A stretch of DNA of 64,000 bases from an uncultured Allomuricauda sp. (GCA_963677115.1 OY781874.1:2937618-3001617), one strand, 5' to 3'; shown: positions 1,723-48,007, counted from the stretch's first letter. Program-made: numbers and translations. Notes: generated from the sequence alone by a model not told the origin.

Positions 1723-2538
1723 ATGGAAAAAGCACAGGAATGGTTCGATTATGCAATTGAATTGGCAAAAGAATTTGGTCCCAAACTAGTCACCGCACTC
1801 ATCATTTATTTGGTGGGTATGTGGGTTGTGAACAAAATTATTAAGGGTACCCGAAAGGTGATGTCCAAAAGTAAGTACGACCTATCTCTCCAGAAATTTT
1901 TACTGAATCTGTTTTCTTGGGCATTAAAGGTATTCTTGATAATCATTGTAATTTCGAGACTGGGGGTAGATGTCACCACCTTTGCCGCAGTGATAGCTGC
2001 TGCCGGGCTTGCTGTGGGCTTAGCGCTGCAAGGCTCGCTCTCCAATTTTGCCGGAGGTGTACTCATCATGATTTTTAAACCGTATAAAATCGATGACCTT
2101 ATTGAAGCACAAGGTGTTTTGGGCAAAGTAAAAGGCATCGAAATCTTTACCACAAAACTGGTGACCCCTCAAAACAGACTGGCCATTGTTCCCAACGGTG
2201 CCATGGCGAACGGGAACATTATCAACTACACTGCGGAAGGAAAAGTAAGGGTAGATGCCGTGGTTGGCGTGGGGTACGATGAGGATATCAAAAAAACCAA
2301 GGAAGTTTTATTAAAGGTGCTGACCTCCAACAAAAAAGTGCTCAAAGATCCGGCGCCTTCCGTAAATGTTTTGGAACTGGCGGACAGCTCCGTGAACTTT
2401 GCCGTTCGTCCCTATTGCAAACCGGAAGATTATTGGGATGTTTATTTTGCTACCTATGAAAACAGTAAACTTGCGTTGGATGAGGCGGGAATTGAAATTC
2501 CATACCCGCACCAAGTGGAAATCCATAAACAGGGATGA
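1723..2538 (+). CDS. mscS: Small-conductance mechanosensitive channel (MscS family)
   Basis: AAGLAVGLALQGSLSNFAGGVLI and PYKIDD motifs; C-terminal GIEIPYP. Confidence 0.92.
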   Translation: MEKAQEWFDYAIELAKEFGPKLVTALIIYLVGMWVVNKIIKGTRKVMSKSKYDLSLQKFLLNLFSWALKVFLIIIVISRLGVDVTTFAAVIAAAGLAVGLALQGSLSNFAGGVLIMIFKPYKIDDLIEAQGVLGKVKGIEIFTTKLVTPQNRLAIVPNGAMANGNIINYTAEGKVRVDAVVGVGYDEDIKKTKEVLLKVLTSNKKVLKDPAPSVNVLELADSSVNFAVRPYCKPEDYWDVYFATYENSKLALDEAGIEIPYPHQVEIHKQG

Positions 2539-2570
2539 ATTTTGCTCCCTTAAACTCATCAAAAGTTAAC

Positions 2571-2592
2571 TATTCCTGCCTTAGTAGGAATA
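2571..2592. terminator. Hairpin between mscS and the displaced purB 3' end (possible ancestral shared terminator)
   Basis: tattcct...aggaata inverted repeat between two convergent stops. Confidence 0.45.
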
Positions 2593-2599
2593 ACAAATA

Positions 2600-2706
2600 C
2601 TACACCCCAGTGTAATTCGCTGGGGTAATTTGTTTCAACTCAGCTTTAATATCATCTGAAACGTCCAAGGTCTCGATAAAATCGGCAATGGATTTTTGGT
2701 TGATTT
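2600..2706 (-). pseudogene. Orphan duplicate of the last 34 codons of purB (INQKSIADF...ITPANYTGV-stop)
   Basis: 2604-2706 is identical to 10358-10460; it ends GTG TAG where the intact gene ends GTT TAA; an in-frame TAA lies immediately upstream, so it is not translated. Confidence 0.9.
2604..2706. repeat. 103-bp perfect direct repeat, left copy (att-like)
   Basis: Base-by-base identity with 10358-10460. Confidence 0.95.
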
Positions 2707-3043
2707 ATCCCAATAAAGAATGGCATCCAAGCACTCTACAACCTTTACTCCCTCTTCCGCTTACAGCTAGGTTTTGTTTTTCCGAAAAGCATCTATATCA
2801 GATGTTTACTTTACTTCTAACAATAAAAATACTACATTTAAGCATCAAAAGCTTACAATAAACCTTTTTAGATTATTGATAAGCTATTTGTTTTTCAAGC
2901 CTGCCTAGGCAGATAACCCCCTTAGAAAACTTTCAACTTCTATTGTAAACCTTTTCGGTTGAGGACCCTAAGTTTTTAACCATGAAGGTTTGGTACGTAT
3001 TGTGGGTACGCTAAATCTTATTAACACTTAACCTATATTAATC

Positions 3044-3565
3044 ATGAAAAAACTACTGATTACCCTATGCCTGCTGGCGGTAAACGCCTGCAGCAACAAT
3101 GACGACAAACCCGTGAACCCAGTGGACTCCCTGCCGCCCATTACCCAAACGGGGGAGGATACGTTTGCATGCCTAATAAACGGCAAGCCCTTTTTTTCTA
3201 GTTATAAAAGGCGAGCTTCATATACATATACCGAAGATGGATATACCTTTTCAATAAGTGGCTCAAGATATGATGATGAAGGAATTAAAACAGTTAGCTT
3301 GGTGGGTTTGGATATTTCAAATTTAATTGAAGAAAAAAATTATTTATTAGAGTCTGAAATGAGTGGCAATTTTTATGGCAGGTACGCTATATACAATTCA
3401 GGTATAACAGCTTACTCTTCATCACATGATACCCCTGGTGTTTTAAACATTACTAAAATTGATTTGGATGAGGGCTTTGTTTCTGGAACATTTGAATTTA
3501 TAGCTAATGACGGAGAAGGAAATATTTTAAGTTTCACCGACGGCCGTTTCGACCTAGAATTTTGA
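3044..3565 (+). CDS. Variable lipoprotein A1 (DUF6252-like)
   Basis: Lipobox AVNAC; LPPITQTGEDTFACLING N-terminal block; SGTFEF...DGRFDLEF C-terminus; family name from recall. Confidence 0.7.
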   Translation: MKKLLITLCLLAVNACSNNDDKPVNPVDSLPPITQTGEDTFACLINGKPFFSSYKRRASYTYTEDGYTFSISGSRYDDEGIKTVSLVGLDISNLIEEKNYLLESEMSGNFYGRYAIYNSGITAYSSSHDTPGVLNITKIDLDEGFVSGTFEFIANDGEGNILSFTDGRFDLEF

Positions 3566-3597
3566 ACAGCTTAAAATCAACCACTTAAAAATTAAAG

Positions 3598-3631
3598 GCA
3601 GCATACCCCAAATCCATAAATTTTAAATCTA
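3598..3631 (+). repeat. 34-nt pre-gene element, copy 1
   Basis: GCAGCATACCCCAAATCCATAAATTTTAAATCTA, starting 40 nt before the ATG at 3638. Confidence 0.9.
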
Positions 3632-3637
3632 CAAATC

Positions 3638-4159
3638 ATGAAAAAACTACTGATTACCCTATGCCTGCTGGCGGTAAACGCCTGTAGCAACACCGATGAC
3701 AAGCCCGTGAACCCAGTGGACACCCTGCCGCCCATTACCCAGACAGGGGAGGATACGTTTGCATGCTTAATAAACGGCAAACCCTTTTTTTCTAGTAAAG
3801 ACAGAAGTGCATTTTATACCTATGCTGATGGTGCTTACACCTTGGGAATCAGTGGGACTAGAAATGATGATATTGGCTTAAGGTCAATTCTTTTAGCAGG
3901 AATCGATATTAAAGAAGGGATTAAAGAAGGAATCTGTCCACTTAATTCTGAAAATAGTGGAAGCTTTGACGCCACCTATCTTATAGATGGAGGAGTCACG
4001 CTGAATTCATCAACAACTGATGAGGCTCCAGGTATTTTAACTATCACTCGATTTGACCTAGAGGAATTTATTGTTTCGGGCACCTTTGAGTTTACGGTGG
4101 TAGATGATGAAGGTAATAAATACGAAATGACCGACGGCCGTTTCGACTTAGAATTTTGA
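3638..4159 (+). CDS. Variable lipoprotein A2 (DUF6252-like)
   Basis: Same conserved ends as A1, divergent middle. Confidence 0.7.
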   Translation: MKKLLITLCLLAVNACSNTDDKPVNPVDTLPPITQTGEDTFACLINGKPFFSSKDRSAFYTYADGAYTLGISGTRNDDIGLRSILLAGIDIKEGIKEGICPLNSENSGSFDATYLIDGGVTLNSSTTDEAPGILTITRFDLEEFIVSGTFEFTVVDDEGNKYEMTDGRFDLEF

Positions 4160-4191
4160 ACAGCTTAAAATCAACCACTTCAAAATTAAAG

Positions 4192-4225
4192 GCAGCATAC
4201 CCCAGATCCATAAACTTTAAATCTA
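4192..4225 (+). repeat. 34-nt pre-gene element, copy 2
   Basis: GCAGCATACCCCAGATCCATAAACTTTAAATCTA, 40 nt before the ATG at 4232. Confidence 0.9.
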
Positions 4226-4231
4226 TATAAT

Positions 4232-4966
4232 ATGAAAAGAACAATTTTTATTATGCTTTCCTTTTTCATCTTCCAGAGTTGTGAAAAGGACGATACCGCA
4301 TTGGATTGCCAAGCCGACTGCACTACTGTGCAGGGCCAAATAGTTACGGCCAAAGGAGAGCCCTTGCCCAATATATCTGTGGCTTTTGATCATTTTGTCA
4401 GCCAAGGAATTGGAAGTTCCCGTCGAAAAATCAAAGAAACAAGGACTGACGAGAATGGTTATTATACCATGAAATTTTTTATTAAAGATGATGAACTCGG
4501 TGTCGAAGCTGATGGACTTTTTGAATTGAATATCGATTACAGCAACCTTGATTCCAAGGTTTACATGAGTACAAATCAATATTATAAACACACGATGTAT
4601 TATTTGGATAAACGGGACACTACAATCGTTTTGGACTTCTATAACCCTAAAAAAGCCTATATCACGGTAAACCTCAATGGTTTTAATCCAAGTACTGAAG
4701 ATGATTATTTTAAGTTAGAATCATTTTTTCCTTCTGGAATAAAAAATGAGAAGAATAGTATATGGGGTTTTGATTATGTATTGGGTTATGGTACAAGTTA
4801 TAAAGCAACCTCGGCCAATTCTAAAATTGACAGTGTTTTAGTTGCGGAAAATGATAATAATTGGATCAGTATCCGGAGATGGAAGGGTGGTGTAAACTTG
4901 ATAGATGAGGACACTATTTTTTTTGTTCCGGAAAACAATTCAATTAAGCTGGATTTTATCTATTGA
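4232..4966 (+). CDS. Variable lipoprotein B1, unknown function
   Basis: Lipobox FQSC followed by EKDD; TVQGQIVT...GEPL resembles a carboxypeptidase-regulatory/prealbumin-like beta domain. Confidence 0.7.
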   Translation: MKRTIFIMLSFFIFQSCEKDDTALDCQADCTTVQGQIVTAKGEPLPNISVAFDHFVSQGIGSSRRKIKETRTDENGYYTMKFFIKDDELGVEADGLFELNIDYSNLDSKVYMSTNQYYKHTMYYLDKRDTTIVLDFYNPKKAYITVNLNGFNPSTEDDYFKLESFFPSGIKNEKNSIWGFDYVLGYGTSYKATSANSKIDSVLVAENDNNWISIRRWKGGVNLIDEDTIFFVPENNSIKLDFIY

Positions 4967-5006
4967 TGAAATACAAGACCATATACTATTTCTAACCATT
5001 TGTTAA

Positions 5007-5040
5007 GCAGCATCCCCCAGATCCATAAACTTTAAATCTA
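5007..5040 (+). repeat. 34-nt pre-gene element, copy 3
   Basis: GCAGCATCCCCCAGATCCATAAACTTTAAATCTA, 40 nt before the ATG at 5047. Confidence 0.9.
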
Positions 5041-5046
5041 CAAATT

Positions 5047-5553
5047 ATGAAAAAACTACTGATTACCCTATGCCTGCTGGCGGTAAACGCCTGTGGCAAC
5101 AATGACGACAAACCCGTGAACCCAGTGGACACCCTGCCGCCCATTACCCAAACGGGGGAGGATACGTTTGCATGCTTAATCAATAGAAAACCTTTTTTTT
5201 CCAGTTACAAGAGACGAGCTACTTACTCAGGAAATTCTATTAGTATAAGTGGTTCGAGACAGGATGATATGGGACTAAGATCTGTGTCTATTCAGGGTTT
5301 TAATCTAGAAATCATTGAGGAAGGCTTGTATGTGTTAGAATTAGAGAAAAGCGGTAGTTTCTTCGGAATTTACTTAGTTGATGGAGGACTCACACTTGAT
5401 ATTGGAACCTCTGATAATTTACCTGGTACGCTAACCATCACTCGATTTGATCTGGATGAATTTATCGTTTCGGGCACCTTTGAGTTTACGGTGGTAGATG
5501 ATGAAGGTAATAAATACGAAATCACAGACGGCCGTTTCGACTTAGAATTTTGA
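5047..5553 (+). CDS. Variable lipoprotein A3 (DUF6252-like)
   Basis: Conserved ends; shorter variable segment than A1, A2 and A4. Confidence 0.7.
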   Translation: MKKLLITLCLLAVNACGNNDDKPVNPVDTLPPITQTGEDTFACLINRKPFFSSYKRRATYSGNSISISGSRQDDMGLRSVSIQGFNLEIIEEGLYVLELEKSGSFFGIYLVDGGLTLDIGTSDNLPGTLTITRFDLDEFIVSGTFEFTVVDDEGNKYEITDGRFDLEF

Positions 5554-5585
5554 ACAGCTTAAAATCAACCACTTCAAAATTAAAG

Positions 5586-5619
5586 GCAGCATACCCCAGA
5601 TCCATAAACTTTAAATCTA
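5586..5619 (+). repeat. 34-nt pre-gene element, copy 4
   Basis: GCAGCATACCCCAGATCCATAAACTTTAAATCTA, 40 nt before the ATG at 5626. Confidence 0.9.
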
Positions 5620-5625
5620 CATAGT

Positions 5626-6144
5626 ATGAAAAAACTACTGATTACCCTATGCCTGCTGGCGGTAAACGCCTGTAGCAACAATGACGACAAACCCTTGAAC
5701 CCAGTGGACACCCTGCCGCCCATTACCCAAACCGGAGAGGATACATTTGCATGCTTAATAAACGGCAAGCCCTTTTTTTCCAGCAAAGACAGAAGAGCAT
5801 CTTATACGTTTACGGATGGCGCTTATACCTTGGGAGTAAGCGGTTCAAGAAATGACGAGATTGGATTGAGAACTATTTCAATACAGGGGATAGATGTTGC
5901 CCCATTAAACGAAGGTATTTATAATCTTGAATCTGAAAAAAGCGGAAATTTTAGTGGACTCTATGGAATAGATGGAGGTCTATTACTTGATGTAGGAACT
6001 TCTGATAATTTACCGGGTACGCTGACCATCACTCGATTTGATCTGGATGAATTTATCGTTTCGGGCACCTTTGAGTTTACGGTAGTAGATGATGAAGGTA
6101 ATAAATACGAAATCACCGAAGGCCGTTTCGACCTAGAATTTTGA
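5626..6144 (+). CDS. Variable lipoprotein A4 (DUF6252-like)
   Basis: Conserved ends; 5' variable part resembles A2, 3' part resembles A3. Confidence 0.7.
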   Translation: MKKLLITLCLLAVNACSNNDDKPLNPVDTLPPITQTGEDTFACLINGKPFFSSKDRRASYTFTDGAYTLGVSGSRNDEIGLRTISIQGIDVAPLNEGIYNLESEKSGNFSGLYGIDGGLLLDVGTSDNLPGTLTITRFDLDEFIVSGTFEFTVVDDEGNKYEITEGRFDLEF

Positions 6145-6176
6145 AAAACTCAAAGTCAACTAATTAAAAATTAAAG

Positions 6177-6210
6177 GCAGCATACCCCAGATCCATAAAC
6201 TTTAAATCTA
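6177..6210 (+). repeat. 34-nt pre-gene element, copy 5
   Basis: GCAGCATACCCCAGATCCATAAACTTTAAATCTA, 39 nt before the ATG at 6216. Confidence 0.9.
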
Positions 6211-6215
6211 CACTT

Positions 6216-6950
6216 ATGAAAAGAACAATTTTTATTATGCTTTCCTTTTTCATCTTCCAAAGTTGTGAAAAGGACGATACCGCTTTGGAATGCCAGACCG
6301 ACTGCACTACAGTGCAGGGCCAGATAGTTACGGCCAAAGGAGAACCCTTGCCCAACATACCTGTGGCTTTTGATTACCAATACATTCTTGGTATTGGTTC
6401 CAAAGTCAGAAGGATAAAAAAAATAACGACCGATAAAAATGGCAATTATAAAATGCAATTTTTTGTCAAGGACGAGGAACTTACCGGAGACGCTGGGGGA
6501 TATTTTGAATTGGTAATCGATTATAGCAACCTTGATTCCGAGGTTTACATAAGTACGGATAGTTATTACTCACTTGCAGTTGGACAGATTAGCAATCGTG
6601 ACACTACGATCACACTGGACTTTTATAACCCTAAAAAAGCCTATATCACGGTAAACCTCAATAGTTTTAATCCGAGTACTGAAGATGATTCATTTATTAT
6701 AAGATCATTTTACCCAACAGGGCGTAAGATTGGCCAAAATAGTTTATTGGATACTGAATATCAAATTGCACAAGGCACAGAGGTTAAAGCTAATTCAGTT
6801 AATACCATTTCAGACAGTGTTCTTGTAGCATTGGAAGACATCAACCGAATTGGTGTGAATAGGAGGAAAAACGGTGTGGAATTGGAGACTGAATACTATA
6901 CAATTTATGTGGACAAGAATAACGAAATAGAATTGAACTATAGTTATTAG
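6216..6950 (+). CDS. Variable lipoprotein B2, paralog of B1
   Basis: Nearly identical first 48 aa and internal RDTTI.LDFYNPKKAYITVNLN.FNPSTEDD block; same length (244 aa). Confidence 0.7.
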   Translation: MKRTIFIMLSFFIFQSCEKDDTALECQTDCTTVQGQIVTAKGEPLPNIPVAFDYQYILGIGSKVRRIKKITTDKNGNYKMQFFVKDEELTGDAGGYFELVIDYSNLDSEVYISTDSYYSLAVGQISNRDTTITLDFYNPKKAYITVNLNSFNPSTEDDSFIIRSFYPTGRKIGQNSLLDTEYQIAQGTEVKANSVNTISDSVLVALEDINRIGVNRRKNGVELETEYYTIYVDKNNEIELNYSY

Positions 6951-6981
6951 GGTGTTATATATAAAAAACATTTTTAATGGC

Positions 6982-7015
6982 GCAGCATCCCTCAAATCCA
7001 TAAACTTTAAATCTA
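6982..7015 (+). repeat. 34-nt pre-gene element, copy 6
   Basis: GCAGCATCCCTCAAATCCATAAACTTTAAATCTA, 40 nt before the ATG at 7022. Confidence 0.9.
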
Positions 7016-7021
7016 TAAATT

Positions 7022-10000
7022 ATGAAAAAACTACTGATTTGCTTGACATTATTGACCTGCTTTGGCCTCTCCGCCCAATTGCATATCGACCTTGAGGTCG
7101 CCGACCGCACCAACCAAGCGTTCAGCTTGTTGGACAAAAGCAAGGTTCCCCACAACATGCTACTGGATTATGGGTACGATTTTGTGGACGTGACCAACTA
7201 CGACGGCGTGCTCCGGGACAACAATTATCTAGTACCCTCCGTGTACCGCGACCTGTACAACAGTGTGGTCTCCATGCGTACCACCCTAACCGTGCCGGAA
7301 CTGGTGGACCCTATGCTCATGGAACAGGGGTGGAAGAGCACTTCCAAGACGGAGCTGAACAAACTGGGCAAAGGGGCCATGGCCTCGGCAGTGGTCCTCA
7401 ACGGCATGTACTACCAGTATGCCCGCTTTCGCCCCGATGCGTTGCAGAACGGCCTTATTGCGGTGGAGAACAACAAGTACCGCGATGTGTATGTGGGCAC
7501 GGAGTGGCAGGACCCCTACGAGGAAATGGAAGTGTTTGCTATGGCGCTACCCGTTACGCAGATCAGCAACTCCAAGGTGTCCGTGGTGCTGGGCAAAACG
7601 GATTGGCGCACCAACCAACCGGGCCTGGTGGACGAATTTGCCGTGGATTTTGGCGATGGCGGCGGGTTTGAGCCCATGTTGTTGGGCGTATCCGTAGATC
7701 ATTATTTTGAACAGGACGGGGAGTACGCGTGGACGTTTCGGCTAAAGCTCACGGACGGTACCTTTAAGTACTGCCGCACCCCGGTAAAGGTCACCGGTAA
7801 GGCCAAACAACAGACCCTGACGGCCCGTAACCCTGACTGCGATAAGAAACCCTGGGTAGAGACCATTACAGCCGCTAAGGGGTATATGGGGATAAAGGGA
7901 GTGGCCAATTTACAGATAGCCCCTGCCAAAGAATGTACTAAAATCCACAAACCCTTGATTGTTGTAGAAGGGTTTGATACGGGTTTGATGGGAAATGATC
8001 CAGAATGGGGTGATACACACCTTAAATCTTTTTTGGATGAGGTGAGGTTTAAGTCTCAAAGTCAAGAATTGCAAAACCTTATTACCGAAGACACCGAAGA
8101 AAGTTTTGACATCATCTACGTAAACTGGGAAGATGGCACCGATTGGCTGCAGCGCAATGCCTATGCCCTGGAGGCGGTGATAGAATGGGTGAACAACAAT
8201 AAGGAGGAAGATGCAGCGCCCAACGTTATCTTGGGCCAGAGCATGGGCGGGGTCATTGCCCGGTATGCCCTTCGCGATATGGAGAACAACAATGTGGACC
8301 ACGATACCAGCCTCTACATAAGCCACGATGCCCCGCACCAAGGTGCCCACGTGCCCCCCGGCTTTTTATTTGCCGCACGCCATGTGCTCAACGAGCTTAT
8401 TACCACGCCCATTGGCGATGTTACGGTAGCCGTTGCCAGTAATGAGTTTCCGGTGGACGATGCCCGCCAATTGATAGATAGGCCCGCTGTAAAGCAAATG
8501 CTCATCAATTATGTGGACTCCAATTACGAACTGAACAACACGGTGCACAAGGCATGGCAGACCGAGCTCAAGAACATGGGCTACCCGCAGCAAACACGCA
8601 ATATAGCCATCAGCAATGGTAGCCATTGCGCAGAAGGCTACGGGTTGGAACCCGGCAAAAGCCTTTTCTGGCTGCACGGTAGGGCCTCTACCAGCCTTAT
8701 TGGGGACTTCCTGCTCTTTCTTTATCCAGCCTTAGGAGGAATCCCCGGTGCGGCTTTTGGGGATATTCCTGCCGCTATACTGGGTTTTGTACCGGGAAAG
8801 ACCACCCTTAAAACGGATTTTCAGGCATGGGCCATACCAGGGAACGTAGAAGACTTGATTTATAAGGGATGGATCCAGTACGAAAAGAAAAGTTTATGGA
8901 TTTTGCCCATAACCCGCACCCTTACCAATAAAGCCATTAAATGGCAGGGAGAGAATGTGTATTGGGCAAATTTTCCGGGAGGGGCTATGCCGTTTATCAA
9001 TACTGTAGATGATTTTAATATAAATGACGAGGAAACTATAGTGGACTTTTTGTTGAATTATGATATCACCTTGGAAACACCCCCGGACCTTAATTTTATA
9101 CCCACGACCAGTGCCCTGGATGTAGGCGGCAATAATGTGGCACTTACCCAGGAAGACCATTACAGAGTCTATACCATGGATGCGGAACTACCGGATGGGC
9201 TAAAGATTCAATTTGATAATTTTGCCACCACTTACAATATTTCTGGGAAGAATACGGATCATATTTCCTTTAATAGGGCCAATGGCGATTGGTTGGCCGA
9301 TGAGCTTAAGAATGCAGGCACCGTTTTCGATTGTACATTTTTATGTGGTTCCAGTTTTGTGATCGAGGGAAGCAGCAAGCTTTGTGAACAAGAAATTTAT
9401 TTTGTGGATGTAAAGGGAGATATGCAGGTAGAATGGAGTTCCGATAACATGGAGGCAGCATTACCCAGCGACCCCAACAGCCCGGCAACATCGTTTACCA
9501 CCTCACCAAATTCCTATAACGAAACATTGACCATTTATGCCATTTTGACCTCCGAAAGCTGTGCAGGAGACCCCATAGTTCTGGAAAAAACTGTCCATGT
9601 GGGCAAGCCTGGGCTACCATCCAACTTATGGGGACCCGAAATTGTTTTAACAGGAGCTTTGGTCAAGTATTATGGCGGACCTGCAGAGGGGGCTGATTCT
9701 TATGAATGGTGGCTGCCCCATCCTTTTGAAGTAGTAGACCAGTTTGATTATTTTGGGGATAATTGGCAAATATTAAGTACCAATACCTATTATGATGTGG
9801 CCAATGTATTTACTGGATATGCAAAACATGAGGGGTTGGTACAGCTTATGGGCGTAAACGAGTGTGGGCGGGGACCTGCTATAACAATGCATGTAAAACA
9901 TGTCGGAGAGGGAGAAATTGGTGAAGGAGGTATTCCTTTGGAACAGAATCCAGGATACCAGTCGAACCCTAATTCAAATGAAACCGAGGATGGTGTAGTG

Positions 10001-10255
10001 ATCTATCCCAATACCGCAACGGACGAGGTAAACATCACCTTGGAATCCTCCATGGGTCCAGAAGGGATTGCTCCATCAAAAATCTTGGGTATAGCTGTAT
10101 ACCAACAGCTACAACAAGCACCTAAAAAGCAACTGATTTTTTCCTCACCTAAGACTTCAGCATTGATAGATGTCAGGGATTTAAATGATGGGTACTATTT
10201 TGTAGTGATAGAAACCGATAAAGGCCCGGTGACCAAAATTCTTTTGGTAAAATAA
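7022..10255 (+). CDS. T9SS type-A cargo protein with an alpha/beta-hydrolase (lipase/esterase-like) domain
   Basis: Signal peptide ending LSAQ; GQSMG nucleophile elbow at 8234-8248 (aa 405-409); IVVEGFD and DAPHQGA motifs; C-terminal IYPNT...DVRDLNDGYYFVVIETDKGPVTKILLVK sorting domain. Confidence 0.78.
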   Translation: MKKLLICLTLLTCFGLSAQLHIDLEVADRTNQAFSLLDKSKVPHNMLLDYGYDFVDVTNYDGVLRDNNYLVPSVYRDLYNSVVSMRTTLTVPELVDPMLMEQGWKSTSKTELNKLGKGAMASAVVLNGMYYQYARFRPDALQNGLIAVENNKYRDVYVGTEWQDPYEEMEVFAMALPVTQISNSKVSVVLGKTDWRTNQPGLVDEFAVDFGDGGGFEPMLLGVSVDHYFEQDGEYAWTFRLKLTDGTFKYCRTPVKVTGKAKQQTLTARNPDCDKKPWVETITAAKGYMGIKGVANLQIAPAKECTKIHKPLIVVEGFDTGLMGNDPEWGDTHLKSFLDEVRFKSQSQELQNLITEDTEESFDIIYVNWEDGTDWLQRNAYALEAVIEWVNNNKEEDAAPNVILGQSMGGVIARYALRDMENNNVDHDTSLYISHDAPHQGAHVPPGFLFAARHVLNELITTPIGDVTVAVASNEFPVDDARQLIDRPAVKQMLINYVDSNYELNNTVHKAWQTELKNMGYPQQTRNIAISNGSHCAEGYGLEPGKSLFWLHGRASTSLIGDFLLFLYPALGGIPGAAFGDIPAAILGFVPGKTTLKTDFQAWAIPGNVEDLIYKGWIQYEKKSLWILPITRTLTNKAIKWQGENVYWANFPGGAMPFINTVDDFNINDEETIVDFLLNYDITLETPPDLNFIPTTSALDVGGNNVALTQEDHYRVYTMDAELPDGLKIQFDNFATTYNISGKNTDHISFNRANGDWLADELKNAGTVFDCTFLCGSSFVIEGSSKLCEQEIYFVDVKGDMQVEWSSDNMEAALPSDPNSPATSFTTSPNSYNETLTIYAILTSESCAGDPIVLEKTVHVGKPGLPSNLWGPEIVLTGALVKYYGGPAEGADSYEWWLPHPFEVVDQFDYFGDNWQILSTNTYYDVANVFTGYAKHEGLVQLMGVNECGRGPAITMHVKHVGEGEIGEGGIPLEQNPGYQSNPNSNETEDGVVIYPNTATDEVNITLESSMGPEGIAPSKILGIAVYQQLQQAPKKQLIFSSPKTSALIDVRDLNDGYYFVVIETDKGPVTKILLVK

Positions 10256-10353
10256 AAGTAACTGCCTATCCACAGCAACCAAGATGGACTAGATTTTTGA
10301 TTTTGATTCATCTTGAGCAGAAATCTAAAGTCTCGAACTGGCAGAATTTTAGA

Positions 10354-11697
10354 TTAAACCCCAGTGTAATTCGCTGGGGTAATTTGTTTCAACTCAGCTT
10401 TAATATCATCTGAAACGTCCAAGGTCTCGATAAAATCGGCAATGGATTTTTGGTTGATTTTTTCGTTGGTACGCGTTAAACCTTTTAAGGCTTCGTATGG
10501 GTTGGGATAGCCCTCTCTTCGTAAAATGGTCTGAATGGCCTCGGCAACCACGGCCCAATTATCCTCTAAATCTTGCTCGAACTTGGATTGGTTCAGTACC
10601 AATTTGCCCAATCCTTTTAAAGTAGACTGGAAACCAACTATGGTATGTGCAAAAGGCACCCCCACATTTCGTAAAACAGTACTGTCCGTAAGATCACGTT
10701 GTAATCTGGAAATCGGGAGTTTGGCGGATAAATGTTCAAAAATGGCATTGGCCAAGCCCAAATTTCCTTCCGAATTTTCAAAATCGATAGGATTCACCTT
10801 GTGCGGCATGGCCGAAGAGCCAACTTCTCCTTTTTTGATTTTCTGTTTAAAGTAATCCATGGAAATGTAGGTCCAAAAGTCGCGATCCAAATCAATCAAA
10901 ATGGTGTTGATGCGTTTAAGGCAATCGAACAAAGCCGCCATATGGTCGTAGTGCTCGATTTGGGTAGTGGGGAAGGAGTGGTGCAAGCCCAGTTTCTCCT
11001 GTACAAACTGCTTTCCAAAGGCTCTCCAATCATTATTGGGATACGCCACCTTGTGTGCGTTGTAATTCCCTGTGGCGCCACCGAACTTAGCAGCACTGGG
11101 TATGTCGTTCAATAAATTGAACTGCTCTTTAAAACGTTCCACAAACACGTCGATTTCCTTGCCTAAACGGGTAGGGGAAGCGGGCTGACCGTGGGTCCTG
11201 GCCAACATAGGGATGTTTTTCCATGTCTTGGCCAGTTCCTTCAATTTTTCAAAAACCTCCAAATAGGAAGGAACGTACACATCGTTCATCGCCTCTTTGA
11301 TGGACAAAGGAATGGCCGTGTTGTTTATGTCTTGGGAAGTCAGTCCAAAGTGAATGAACTCCTTGTATTTCTGAAGGTCTAAAGCATCAAACTTTTGTTT
11401 GATGAAGTATTCCACGGCTTTTACATCGTGATTGGTAGTTTTTTCAATATCCTTGATGGCTTGGGCGTCTTCGGAAGAAAATTCTTGATAGATTTTCTGC
11501 AATTCGGGAAACAGCGCCGTATTGAAATCGGCCAATTGCGGCAAAGGGACTTCGCAAAGCGCTATAAAATATTCAATCTCTACTTGAACACGGTATTTGA
11601 TCAGGGCTTCTTCCGAAAAGTAGTCTTTTAAGGCTTTGGTTTTGTTTCTATATCTGCCGTCAATCGGCGAAATGGCGTTTAGTTGTGTCAGGGACAT
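10354..11697 (-). CDS. purB: Adenylosuccinate lyase
   Basis: LNAISPIDGRY N-terminus, TNHDVKAVEY, signature GSSAMPHKVNPIDFENSEGN; start moved to the ATG at 11697. Confidence 0.96.
   Translation of the reverse strand: MSLTQLNAISPIDGRYRNKTKALKDYFSEEALIKYRVQVEIEYFIALCEVPLPQLADFNTALFPELQKIYQEFSSEDAQAIKDIEKTTNHDVKAVEYFIKQKFDALDLQKYKEFIHFGLTSQDINNTAIPLSIKEAMNDVYVPSYLEVFEKLKELAKTWKNIPMLARTHGQPASPTRLGKEIDVFVERFKEQFNLLNDIPSAAKFGGATGNYNAHKVAYPNNDWRAFGKQFVQEKLGLHHSFPTTQIEHYDHMAALFDCLKRINTILIDLDRDFWTYISMDYFKQKIKKGEVGSSAMPHKVNPIDFENSEGNLGLANAIFEHLSAKLPISRLQRDLTDSTVLRNVGVPFAHTIVGFQSTLKGLGKLVLNQSKFEQDLEDNWAVVAEAIQTILRREGYPNPYEALKGLTRTNEKINQKSIADFIETLDVSDDIKAELKQITPANYTGV
10358..10460. repeat. 103-bp perfect direct repeat, right copy (inside the purB 3' end)
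   Basis: Identical to 2604-2706. Confidence 0.95.
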
Positions 11698-11743
11698 GGT
11701 CAAGAAAATTTTGAAAGGTTCAAAGATACTTAAACGCCATGGT

Positions 11744-12340
11744 TTAGACACCCAAATCGGCCAACTTATCCAGAGTTTTTTTTGCGCGGTTCCGGTATCC
11801 AGTGCTTCCGTTGGGGTAGCTATCTTCCAGAACTAGTTTGAGTTCGGAGTGGACCCAATCAAATTTTAATCCCAAATAGTACAGACTCGTCATTGCAAAA
11901 ACCTTGGGCGCCATATTCATAGGACCAATGAGCCAATCAAAACAAGCGGTCATTATTTTTTCCAATTGGTCATCTGTAATATTTTTAAGGAAATCGGACT
12001 TCTTTTTCTTAAAATAGGCCTCACAGAGCATTTCGCACACATGGGCAATGGGGCGAATACAGGATTCGGACTTTAATTCAGATAAACCGTTCACAAAATT
12101 ATCCATAAAAGGGAGGATGTAGTGTAGTTCCTTTCGCATCAAATGGTCAAAAGTCCAACTTGCATTAAAGGTACCTTTCTTGTCTTCCCATAAAATTTCT
12201 TGATAAAGCACTTGTGCCAATTGGGGTTCCTGCTGTAATTGAATAACCAATTCGTCAATCTGGACCTTGGAAATTCTCCCAGAATGAAGTGCGATATGAA
12301 GCTGCTCTTGCGTCACCAAAAAATCAATATATTTACTCAA
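11744..12340 (-). CDS. Conserved hypothetical helical-repeat protein
   Basis: All-helical pattern, C-terminal GYRNRAKK; no catalytic motif seen; the start may be the GTG at 12316. Confidence 0.6.
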   Translation of the reverse strand: MSKYIDFLVTQEQLHIALHSGRISKVQIDELVIQLQQEPQLAQVLYQEILWEDKKGTFNASWTFDHLMRKELHYILPFMDNFVNGLSELKSESCIRPIAHVCEMLCEAYFKKKKSDFLKNITDDQLEKIMTACFDWLIGPMNMAPKVFAMTSLYYLGLKFDWVHSELKLVLEDSYPNGSTGYRNRAKKTLDKLADLGV

Positions 12341-47969: not shown

Positions 47970-48007
47970 AAAACCAACTTACACGGACCTCGTCAGAGGT
48001 TGATTTT
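47970..48007 (-). promoter_or_regulatory. Candidate L19 ribosomal-protein leader hairpin
   Basis: aaaatcaac...gttggtttt stem in the 5' UTR between the promoter box and the rplS ATG. Confidence 0.45.

Follow-up and report, generated by a model that had tools for sequence, protein, structure and literature searches.

How does one and the same short sequence come to stand, at a nearly constant distance, before the start codons of unrelated genes? This question is raised by a 64,000-nucleotide (nt) stretch of DNA from an uncultured Allomuricauda sp. (GCA_963677115.1 OY781874.1:2937618-3001617), hereafter called the window, for which a preliminary description made from the sequence alone had pointed out a 34-nt element recurring 39-40 nt before the ATG of six genes in an array. 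A recombination crossover site, an RNA processing or stabilising signal and a portable translation-initiation module had been proposed as candidate functions. Here, we analysed position, composition, conservation and surroundings of the element in the window and in related loci. We propose that it is the shared 5′ leader, namely a translation-initiation region independent of Shine-Dalgarno (SD) pairing, of each internal cistron of one polycistronic mRNA, a reading to which we assign a probability of roughly 0.5. How Bacteroidota choose their start codons without an SD sequence is only partly understood, and the known determinants, adenines and lack of structure, are loose. The element offers a natural case: a leader of defined sequence, about 45 nt long, that stands before four unrelated gene families, with a 14-nt box that is constant across species and a start-proximal part that co-evolves within each genome.

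Position and composition of the element

A pattern search with the degenerate 34-mer consensus gave six exact matches in the window, all of them on the plus strand (Table 1), as compared to none in 100 dinucleotide-preserving shuffles. Thirty of the 34 positions are invariant, the variable ones being positions 8, 11, 14 and 24. In five copies the element starts 40 nt before the ATG; in the copy at 6177 the distance is 39 nt because the gap between last base and ATG is 5 instead of 6 nt. All six end 5-6 nt 5′ of ATGs that open lipoprotein or secretory signal peptides, and the same holds for about 50 copies in relatives. The genes that follow belong to three types, A, B and C, among which BLASTP found no mutual similarity at 1e-3. 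The element is also kept where the upstream half of the spacer differs: after B1 and B2 this half bears no relation to that after the A genes, and a flank comparison likewise found no relation of the upstream flank of copy 3 to the flanks following A genes. Number, geometry and gene context of the copies thus proved to be as first described. Before the A genes and C, the identity extends 18 bases past the ATG into the coding sequence, resulting in a 58-nt repeat (family D3), and in copy 6 the sequence shared with the A copies runs through ATGAAAAAACTACTGATT. Pattern and profile searches found no further copies elsewhere in the window. A putative seventh copy in the array leader (2908-2942) looked alike by eye and was dropped, as it reached only 4.4 bits (E 3.7) with the profile; the region of this look-alike is conserved in the related loci L022, L023 and L025.

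In previous studies, a non-SD core TAAAAA has been found about 7 nt from Flavobacterium start codons, also before internal cistrons (PMC6028130), and flavobacterial starts were shown to favour A at -3, -6, -12 and -13, low structure and avoidance of AUG, with most mRNAs being leadered (PMC6847099); the median 5′ untranslated region (UTR) measures 24 nt and 5.5% of the mRNAs are leaderless (PMC9723704). The core of the 3′ half of the element, TTTAAATCTA, ends at -7 and has no SD complementarity. G makes up 7.5% of the spacers compared to 21.8% of the window, and 0% from -24 to -7. Windows of 50 nt from -45 to +5 have minimum free energies of 0 to -2.8 kcal/mol and belong to the least structured 2-14% of the windows of the region; over about 95 nt, the antisense strand folds with -11.5 to -16.9 kcal/mol versus -1.3 to -7.7 kcal/mol for the sense strand. 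ATG is absent from five of the six spacers, and A is present at -3 in five copies and at -12/-13 in five. No conserved RNA pairing was predicted in the element, and no Rfam family reached its threshold within the array.

Distribution and conservation of the element

Homologs of the A genes were found in Allomuricauda, Muricauda and Flagellimonas. Their loci (designated by L numbers) are syntenic and comprise genes for an extracytoplasmic function (ECF) sigma factor, an anti-sigma factor and DUF4252 proteins, mscS, a variable number of A/B-type lipoprotein genes, C and purB. In each of these loci a version of the element precedes every array gene and C, apart from one gene of L023 discussed below, and the relatives' copies stand before four non-homologous families, A, B, D and C. 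The consensus of 33-35 distinct aligned copies reads aAAagcAGCATACCCCAAAT..t(0-4 nt)taAaC.tTtAAcCtATa.AaA-ATG. Had the element been found only here, with no conservation in homologous loci, this would have counted against it according to the preliminary description; it turned out to be conserved in the loci of other species, but it does not occur outside this locus. When the source isolate's contigs were searched at 80% likeness, nothing was returned beyond the six copies described above and two partial matches, about 35 nt long, to the half next to the start codon. Scanning 185,579 species genomes (source genome not included) with the 3′ 20-mer gave 21 single matches, all judged to be chance, six of which fall within a single conserved protein-coding gene of Ignavibacteria and related metagenome-assembled genomes; a scan of viral contigs gave one match, also by chance. 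A protein-based metagenome scan added 80 further loci, in which the element occurs only in the closest clade (L030-L034), and its profile was not detected in 455 kb of more distant arrays. A module used genome-wide or across Bacteroidota is thus unsupported by the contig search, the 20-mer scan and the distant-array profile scan.

The best conserved block of the element, AGCATACCCCAAAT, is referred to as box 1. It is 0.80 identical between lineages, compared to 0.40 for the flank immediately 5′ of it and 0.34-0.48 for 4-fold synonymous sites of gene C between the same lineages, which are saturated; upstream of C, box 1 is identical at 14 of 14 positions across L022, L023, L025, L029 and L032. 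Judged by these comparisons, box 1 is evidently under purifying selection. Its conservation between species does not stem from gene conversion, since a process that acts within one genome is unable to keep a sequence alike in different species. For the 3′ half, identity is 0.79 within lineages but only 0.51 when lineages are compared. This half occurs in lineage versions, for instance CCATAAACTTTAAATCTA in the window, CATTAATCCCTTAACCTA in L023 and CATTTATTAACCATTTAACCTA in L026, and all six L026 copies, which precede families A and B, the new type D and C, have an extra stretch of about 4 nt between the boxes as well as an MKN start. The pattern of the 3′ half is one of concerted evolution of a non-coding module across unrelated genes. 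In the distant arrays L053 and L061, the spacers are about 20 nt long, with CTATTAAAATCTATAAAAA-ATG directly after the stop codon, and distant members of the gene family have a similar AACTnTTAAAATCTA-N5-ATG junction by eye. The 3′ half therefore appears to be old in the gene family, on the strength of a by-eye resemblance which the whole-element profile does not detect there, and box 1 is a clade-specific addition. We also considered whether box 1 descends from the C-terminus of an ancestral A gene (...QYIP-stop in L053/L061 versus an in-frame QHTPNP-stop here), but this is a by-eye resemblance only and the present stop already aligns with the Y/F position of the family.

The geometry of the element is tied to the downstream start codon. 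The distance from the start of box 1 to the ATG is 31-35 nt (mode 33; 38 in L026) in about 50 copies listed for 12 loci, and it stays narrow while spacer length ranges from 60 to 126 nt across loci. The 3′ half ends 5-7 nt before the ATG, and box 1 and box 2 are 14-19 nt apart, the distance being 4 nt longer in all L026 copies. Spacers of L029 and L031 contain (CTTGAA/CTTGCA)n hexamer arrays 5′ of box 1; in L031, tandem arrays of 7-10 units occupy 6529-6586, 7833-7872 and 8468-8519, in the upstream half of the spacer and in one lineage.

Transcriptional setting of the array

Flavobacterial promoter motifs (sigma-A -33/-7, the SM5 variant, sigma-54 and ECF) were used as catalogued previously (PMC9723704). 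A regular-expression scan of the plus strand found TAnnTTTG, TAnnTTGY, the sigma-54 -24/-12 motif (GG-N10-GC) and the ECF motif AAC...CGT in none of the spacers; TTG is missing in five of the six spacers and CGT in all. The only terminator-like match on the plus strand within the array is weak and located inside the coding region of C (8006-8024; 7-bp stem, three GC pairs), and the terminator scan gave fewer matches than expected (four, compared to 8.7 in shuffled sequence). Terminator-like hairpins were found at 2604-2626 after mscS and at 10358-10380 after C, the latter positioned where transcription of C could end, with purB converging from the opposite strand. Since there is no promoter motif in the spacers and no convincing internal terminator, we infer a single transcription unit that comprises the whole array and starts in the 337-nt region 5′ of A0.

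Within that region, AATAAAAATACTACATTTAA at 2820-2841 is conserved in the window, L022, L023, L025 and L026. It contains TAcaTTTA, which resembles a sigma-A -7 box, and may be the array promoter. An ECF-like TAACC-N15-CGTA is located at 2977-2999, 45 nt 5′ of the first array gene, and is a match at regular-expression level only. Each A gene contains a perfect TAnnTTTG (3160, 3754, 5163 and 5742) formed by codons of the conserved EDTFAC motif, with no TTG at -33; these matches are probably coincidental.

A shared leader of internal cistrons as proposed function

Which function would fit an unstructured, G-poor sequence that is held at a constant distance from start codons? In the mechanism that we suggest, a Muricauda/Allomuricauda-like flavobacterium would express the lipoproteins A and B together with C, a hydrolase secreted by the type IX secretion system (T9SS), from one polycistronic mRNA. 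As Bacteroidota ribosomes work without SD pairing, each cistron would need a landing region that is unstructured, A-rich, G-poor and free of AUG. The 3′ half (CCATAAAYTTTAAATCTA, ending at -7) would provide this region for SD-independent ribosome binding, and the core of the 5′ half, AGCAUACCCCAAAU at about -33, would lie at the upstream edge of the region covered by the 30S subunit, where box 1 might serve the ribosome or bS1 as standby or enhancer site, or else be the place at which a sequence-specific regulator docks. The copies of one genome would stay alike through gene conversion and unequal recombination between members of the array, which could also have placed the element before non-homologous genes. 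Of the candidates named at the outset, the translation-initiation module fits best, given the fixed geometry towards the ATG, the lack of G from -24 to -7, the unstructured sense RNA and the non-homologous downstream genes here and in relatives.

Several observations weigh against this proposal. In F. johnsoniae, A at -6 acts as a positive determinant, yet only one of the six copies has it, and the first A gene of L023, which begins 4 nt after the preceding gene, lacks the element. Other genes of the window have ordinary leaders, often with TAnnTTTG about 25-33 nt before the ATG, and are devoid of box 1; the element is therefore no general requirement for initiation. Moreover, mere lack of structure does not explain 14 specific conserved bases, so that box 1 must be recognised by some partner. 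Biofloc metatranscriptome contigs from a relative with 93-95% identity do show the element joined to the upstream spacer and the downstream coding sequence, but these contigs reach into the flanks as well, there with higher depth, and run across convergent genes, and are thus possibly derived from DNA. The only runs carrying the source sequence (X1-X4) are genomic DNA of the source isolate with a uniform depth of about 100x, and X30-X32 are low-depth DNA.

One may go a step further and suppose that box 1 (AGCAUACCCCAAAU, about -33) serves SD-blind ribosomes as a dedicated and sequence-specific signal of recruitment or control, read by bS1, another protein or a small RNA (sRNA). It would mark every cistron of an operon for surface lipoproteins and T9SS cargo for joint translation or silencing, would spread to new genes by short-patch gene conversion and would amount to an SD substitute private to this locus. 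We consider this extension speculative and rather unlikely as a whole. As an SD-less leader, the element is of a known kind; unusual are its defined sequence, its reuse before unrelated genes and the conserved C-rich box at -33, and we found nothing corresponding to it in Rfam or in the literature. The element is thereby a test object for sequence-specific upstream enhancers or regulator sites in SD-blind bacteria, could be used as an expression part for marine Flavobacteriaceae, and documents concerted evolution of a non-coding module across non-homologous genes in a variable array of likely surface-lipoprotein genes. Should box 1 be nothing but a compositional landing pad, an ordinary operon leader would remain, and in either case the element is confined to one accessory locus of one clade.

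Alternative explanations

The alternative closest to the proposed leader function, and overlapping with it, is that box 1 serves for the docking of a post-transcriptional regulator acting in trans, either a G/U-rich sRNA or a single-strand RNA-binding protein, which would switch all cistrons together; we regard this as unlikely. Box 1 would suit such a regulator, being conserved in its specific sequence far above neutral expectation, C/A-rich, single-stranded by prediction and always in sense orientation. The sRNA GcvB acts in this manner at C/A-rich elements of its targets and FopS at susC start regions, and an sRNA or transcript partner of box 1 would have AUUUGGGGUAUGCU-like complementarity. 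A complementary sequence was not detected in the 64-kb window and an extended one was not detected in the contigs of the source genome (short seeds were not covered genome-wide); we know of no such regulator in this clade. FopS sRNAs pair with start regions of outer-membrane protein mRNAs in Bacteroides (PMC11697453), and the antisense strand of the element is weakly FopS-like (19.7-21.3 bits). Quite improbable in our view is an intercistronic signal for RNA processing or stability, at which an endonuclease would cut near the 5′ edge and release monocistronic mRNAs, all with a 40-nt leader: the element has a sharp 5′ boundary (GCAGCAT) whichever gene lies upstream, 40 nt is within the normal range of flavobacterial 5′ UTRs and the RNA is A/U-rich and single-stranded by prediction, but box 1 is anchored to the downstream ATG and not to the upstream stop codon, an anchoring that a cleavage site does not need. 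Could the element be a functionless passenger instead, its copies kept similar by recent duplication and by gene conversion within the array? Close strains clearly show mosaicism and exchange, lineage-specific variants are common to all copies, and within the window the entire spacer after the A genes is as conserved as the element. Still, we give a passenger even less credit than a processing signal, since box 1 is kept across lineages with saturated synonymous sites (0.80 versus 0.34-0.48), the flanks diverge completely and even gain microsatellites, and identity between species is out of reach for conversion within a genome.

It is very doubtful that the copies are internal promoters recognised by an unknown sigma factor, with box 1 as upstream and AAYCTA as downstream element and with leaderless or very short-leader mRNAs as products. 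The layout with two boxes, at about -33 and -7 counted from the A of the start codon, recalls the -33/-7 arrangement of Bacteroidota promoters, but both boxes are unlike TTTG/TAnnTTTG, TAnnTTGY, the sigma-54 -24/-12 motif and the ECF motif AAC/CGT, and unlike the promoter of the neighbouring ECF sigma factor gene (complete in L022, L023 and L025), which is a classical TGTAACA-N16-CGTC. Promoters, furthermore, do not tolerate a box distance that varies from 14 to 19 nt and increases by 4 nt in all L026 copies; leaderless mRNAs account for only about 4-6% in Bacteroidota, and the G-depletion is strand-specific, which points to a role at the RNA level. Least probable of all is that the element is a site-specific recombination or cassette site, or that its minus strand encodes FopS-like antisense sRNAs. 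Homology blocks between strains do start and end at the element: L022 has 98% identity with the window in the flanks but differs in gene order and carries mosaic A genes, and one block (window 5007-5635 = L022 8569-9198) begins exactly at copy 3. The array as a whole is an insertion/deletion between mscS and purB that is flanked by a 106-nt direct repeat. However, breakpoints of the L022 blocks also occur inside the conserved stretches of the A genes, which measure about 160 nt at the 5′ and about 115 nt at the 3′ end, the array contains no recombinase-sized open reading frame (ORF), and none of the eight inverted-repeat pairs reported in 2500-10500 lies inside the element, the nearest (I1) being the spacer segment just 5′ of it, in two copies and self-matched at 72%. 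Variants of box 1 track the upstream gene (position 8 is C after B genes) and the 3′ half tracks the downstream gene; exchanges therefore often resolve between the halves. Exchange at the element is thus ordinary homologous exchange or gene conversion without a dedicated site, and the crossover site proposed initially is supported in a weak sense at most. For the antisense strand, three copies have minus-strand matches to the FopS model (RF04319), but these are far below threshold (19.7-21.3 bits versus a gathering score of 56; E 4.9-9.7), the minus-strand hairpin of 5-6 bp is weak, rich in G-U pairs and not conserved in L023, L025 and L034, and no sigma-A promoter of the form TTG-N19-21-TAnnTTTG was seen when reading the minus strand (the regular-expression scan covered the plus strand only); a FopS sRNA was rejected because of the sub-threshold scores and the missing promoter and terminator features. 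Neither did other classes of repeats fit. That the element is no attC-like palindrome and no CRISPR repeat had been stated before and holds, given that it contains no inverted repeat and that the start-to-start spacings of 579-815 nt each enclose a complete gene, and a dispersed repeat (repetitive extragenic palindrome (REP), bacterial interspersed mosaic element (BIME) or miniature inverted-repeat transposable element) was discarded as the element occupies a single locus in the source contigs and is not palindromic.

The array and its genes

The coordinates of the element copies, the genes and the flanking repeats are summarised in Table 1. The three A paralogs behind element copies (A1-A3) are lipoproteins of 168-173 amino acids from the DUF6252 / NCBIfam Riean_0653 family, with A0 as fourth A gene; B1 and B2 encode 244-amino-acid lipoproteins with a CarboxypepD_reg-like N-terminal domain. 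C encodes a protein of 1077 amino acids with a PKD domain, an alpha/beta-hydrolase (serine-hydrolase) core with the motif GQSMGG and a T9SS C-terminal sorting domain. The protein shows weak matches to the lipase-like families PGAP1, LCAT and DUF676, and its gene is always found 3′ of the lipoprotein array, also in distant Flavobacteriaceae (L041, L043, L061 and L106).

Table 1 Features of the element array and its surroundings in the window.
Feature	Coordinates	Strand	Remarks
Element copy 1	3598..3631	+	before A1 (ATG 3638); exact consensus; profile R1 39.2 bits, E 4e-11
Box 1 core AGCATACCCCAAAT of copy 1	3600-3613	+	
Element copy 2	4192..4225	+	before B1 (ATG 4232); exact consensus; profile R1 46.1 bits
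Element copy 3	5007..5040	+	before A2 (ATG 5047), after B1; exact consensus; profile R1 37.0 bits
Element copy 4	5586..5619	+	before A3 (ATG 5626); exact consensus; profile R1 42.4 bits
Element copy 5	6177..6210	+	before B2 (ATG 6216); exact consensus; profile R1 40.8 bits
Element copy 6	6982..7015	+	before C (ATG 7022), after B2; exact consensus; profile R1 27.8 bits
Partial copy	3013..3038	+	before A0; start-proximal 3′ half only, without box 1; profile R1 10.6 bits, E 0.043, model positions 21-45
Array of seven co-directional genes	3044..10255	+	between mscS and purB; spacers 71-80 nt
A0	3044-3565	+	first array gene, ORF
A1	3638-4159	+	ORF
B1	4232-4966	+	ORF
A2	5047-5553	+	ORF
A3	5626-6144	+	ORF
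B2	6216-6950	+	ORF
C	7022-10255	+	ORF
Array upstream leader region	2707..3043	+	conserved in L022, L023, L025, L026
mscS	1723-2538		left neighbour of array
purB	10354-11751		right neighbour of array, convergent
106-nt direct repeat, left copy	2601..2706		duplicated purB 3′ end and terminator hairpin (2604-2626), after mscS; family D8
106-nt direct repeat, right copy	10355..10460		true purB 3′ end and terminator-like hairpin (10358-10380)

A search of the PDB with the sequences of A and C gave no match. The AlphaFold model of A1 (mean predicted local distance difference test score, pLDDT, 88.9) is an all-beta barrel of 11 strands, and comparison of this fold with the PDB yielded no significant match (best E 0.02); the predicted fold of A may be uncharacterised. 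The A paralogs are nearly identical over about 160 nt at the 5′ end and about 115 nt at the 3′ end and variable in between, and are mosaic between strains that are 98% identical, a pattern typical of a diversifying family, here of likely surface lipoproteins. The residues following the lipobox Cys are C-S-N-N-D-D-K-P in A and C-E-K-D-D-T in B (3056-3110 and 4280-4300). Acidic residues after the lipobox Cys resemble the surface-export signal of Bacteroidota lipoproteins, and by this analogy A and B may be surface exposed. A literature search on the motif and on DUF6252 returned nothing relevant.

The two copies of the 106-nt direct repeat that bracket the whole array are 99% identical. In a relative of higher abundance in the biofloc runs, mscS is followed immediately by the purB side (joint 5741->11842 in L031), and the array is therefore an island that can be present or absent. 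A large serine recombinase gene (Resolvase/Recombinase/Zn_ribbon) follows a SIR2 gene at 18542-20269 of L022, where the window has large minus-strand ORFs; this region may be another strain-specific insertion nearby. Elsewhere in the window, an L19-Flavobacteria ribosomal-protein leader (RF03130, 34.1 bits) at 47975-48002 on the minus strand is the sole Rfam family above threshold, and no rRNA was found within the 64 kb.

Comparison with known systems

Which known systems does the element resemble? Like attC sites, CRISPR, REP and BIME, it is a short intergenic repeat that recurs next to genes varying between strains. Unlike these, it is not palindromic, keeps a fixed distance to a start codon, occurs at one locus and has whole genes of 0.5-0.7 kb between its copies; neither an integrase nor a cas gene is present among the array ORFs. 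The plastid intercistronic expression element (IEE) mediates expression and processing of polycistronic mRNAs. The element is similar in being a unit of about 40-50 nt between cistrons and could define uniform monocistronic 5′ ends; a corresponding binding protein is not known to us.

The epsilon sequence of T7 gene 10, UUAACUUUA, and the target sites of GcvB are single-stranded, A/U- or C/A-rich and located upstream of the ribosome-binding region. In the 3′ half of the element, AAACUUUAA resembles epsilon, a likeness that comprises only 8-9 A/T-rich bases, and box 1 is C/A-rich as are GcvB targets, but in contrast to both systems no SD sequence follows. Together with ATGAAAA, the element also resembles the start regions that are paired by the 5′ seed of FopS/GibS (..TTAAATCTA-N6-ATGAAAAA; RF04319; PMC11697453), which is the reason why its minus strand aligns to the FopS model along the full length. 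In that comparison, it would be a target-like sequence rather than an sRNA gene.

The closest counterparts are the SD-independent initiation regions of Bacteroidota, which, like the element, are located right before start codons including those of internal cistrons, have no SD sequence and contain an A-rich core about 7 nt from the ATG. These regions are loose compositional signals of about 20 nt, whereas the element is a unit of 34-48 nt with a defined sequence, extended by a C-rich box at -33 that is conserved between species, and confined to one array.

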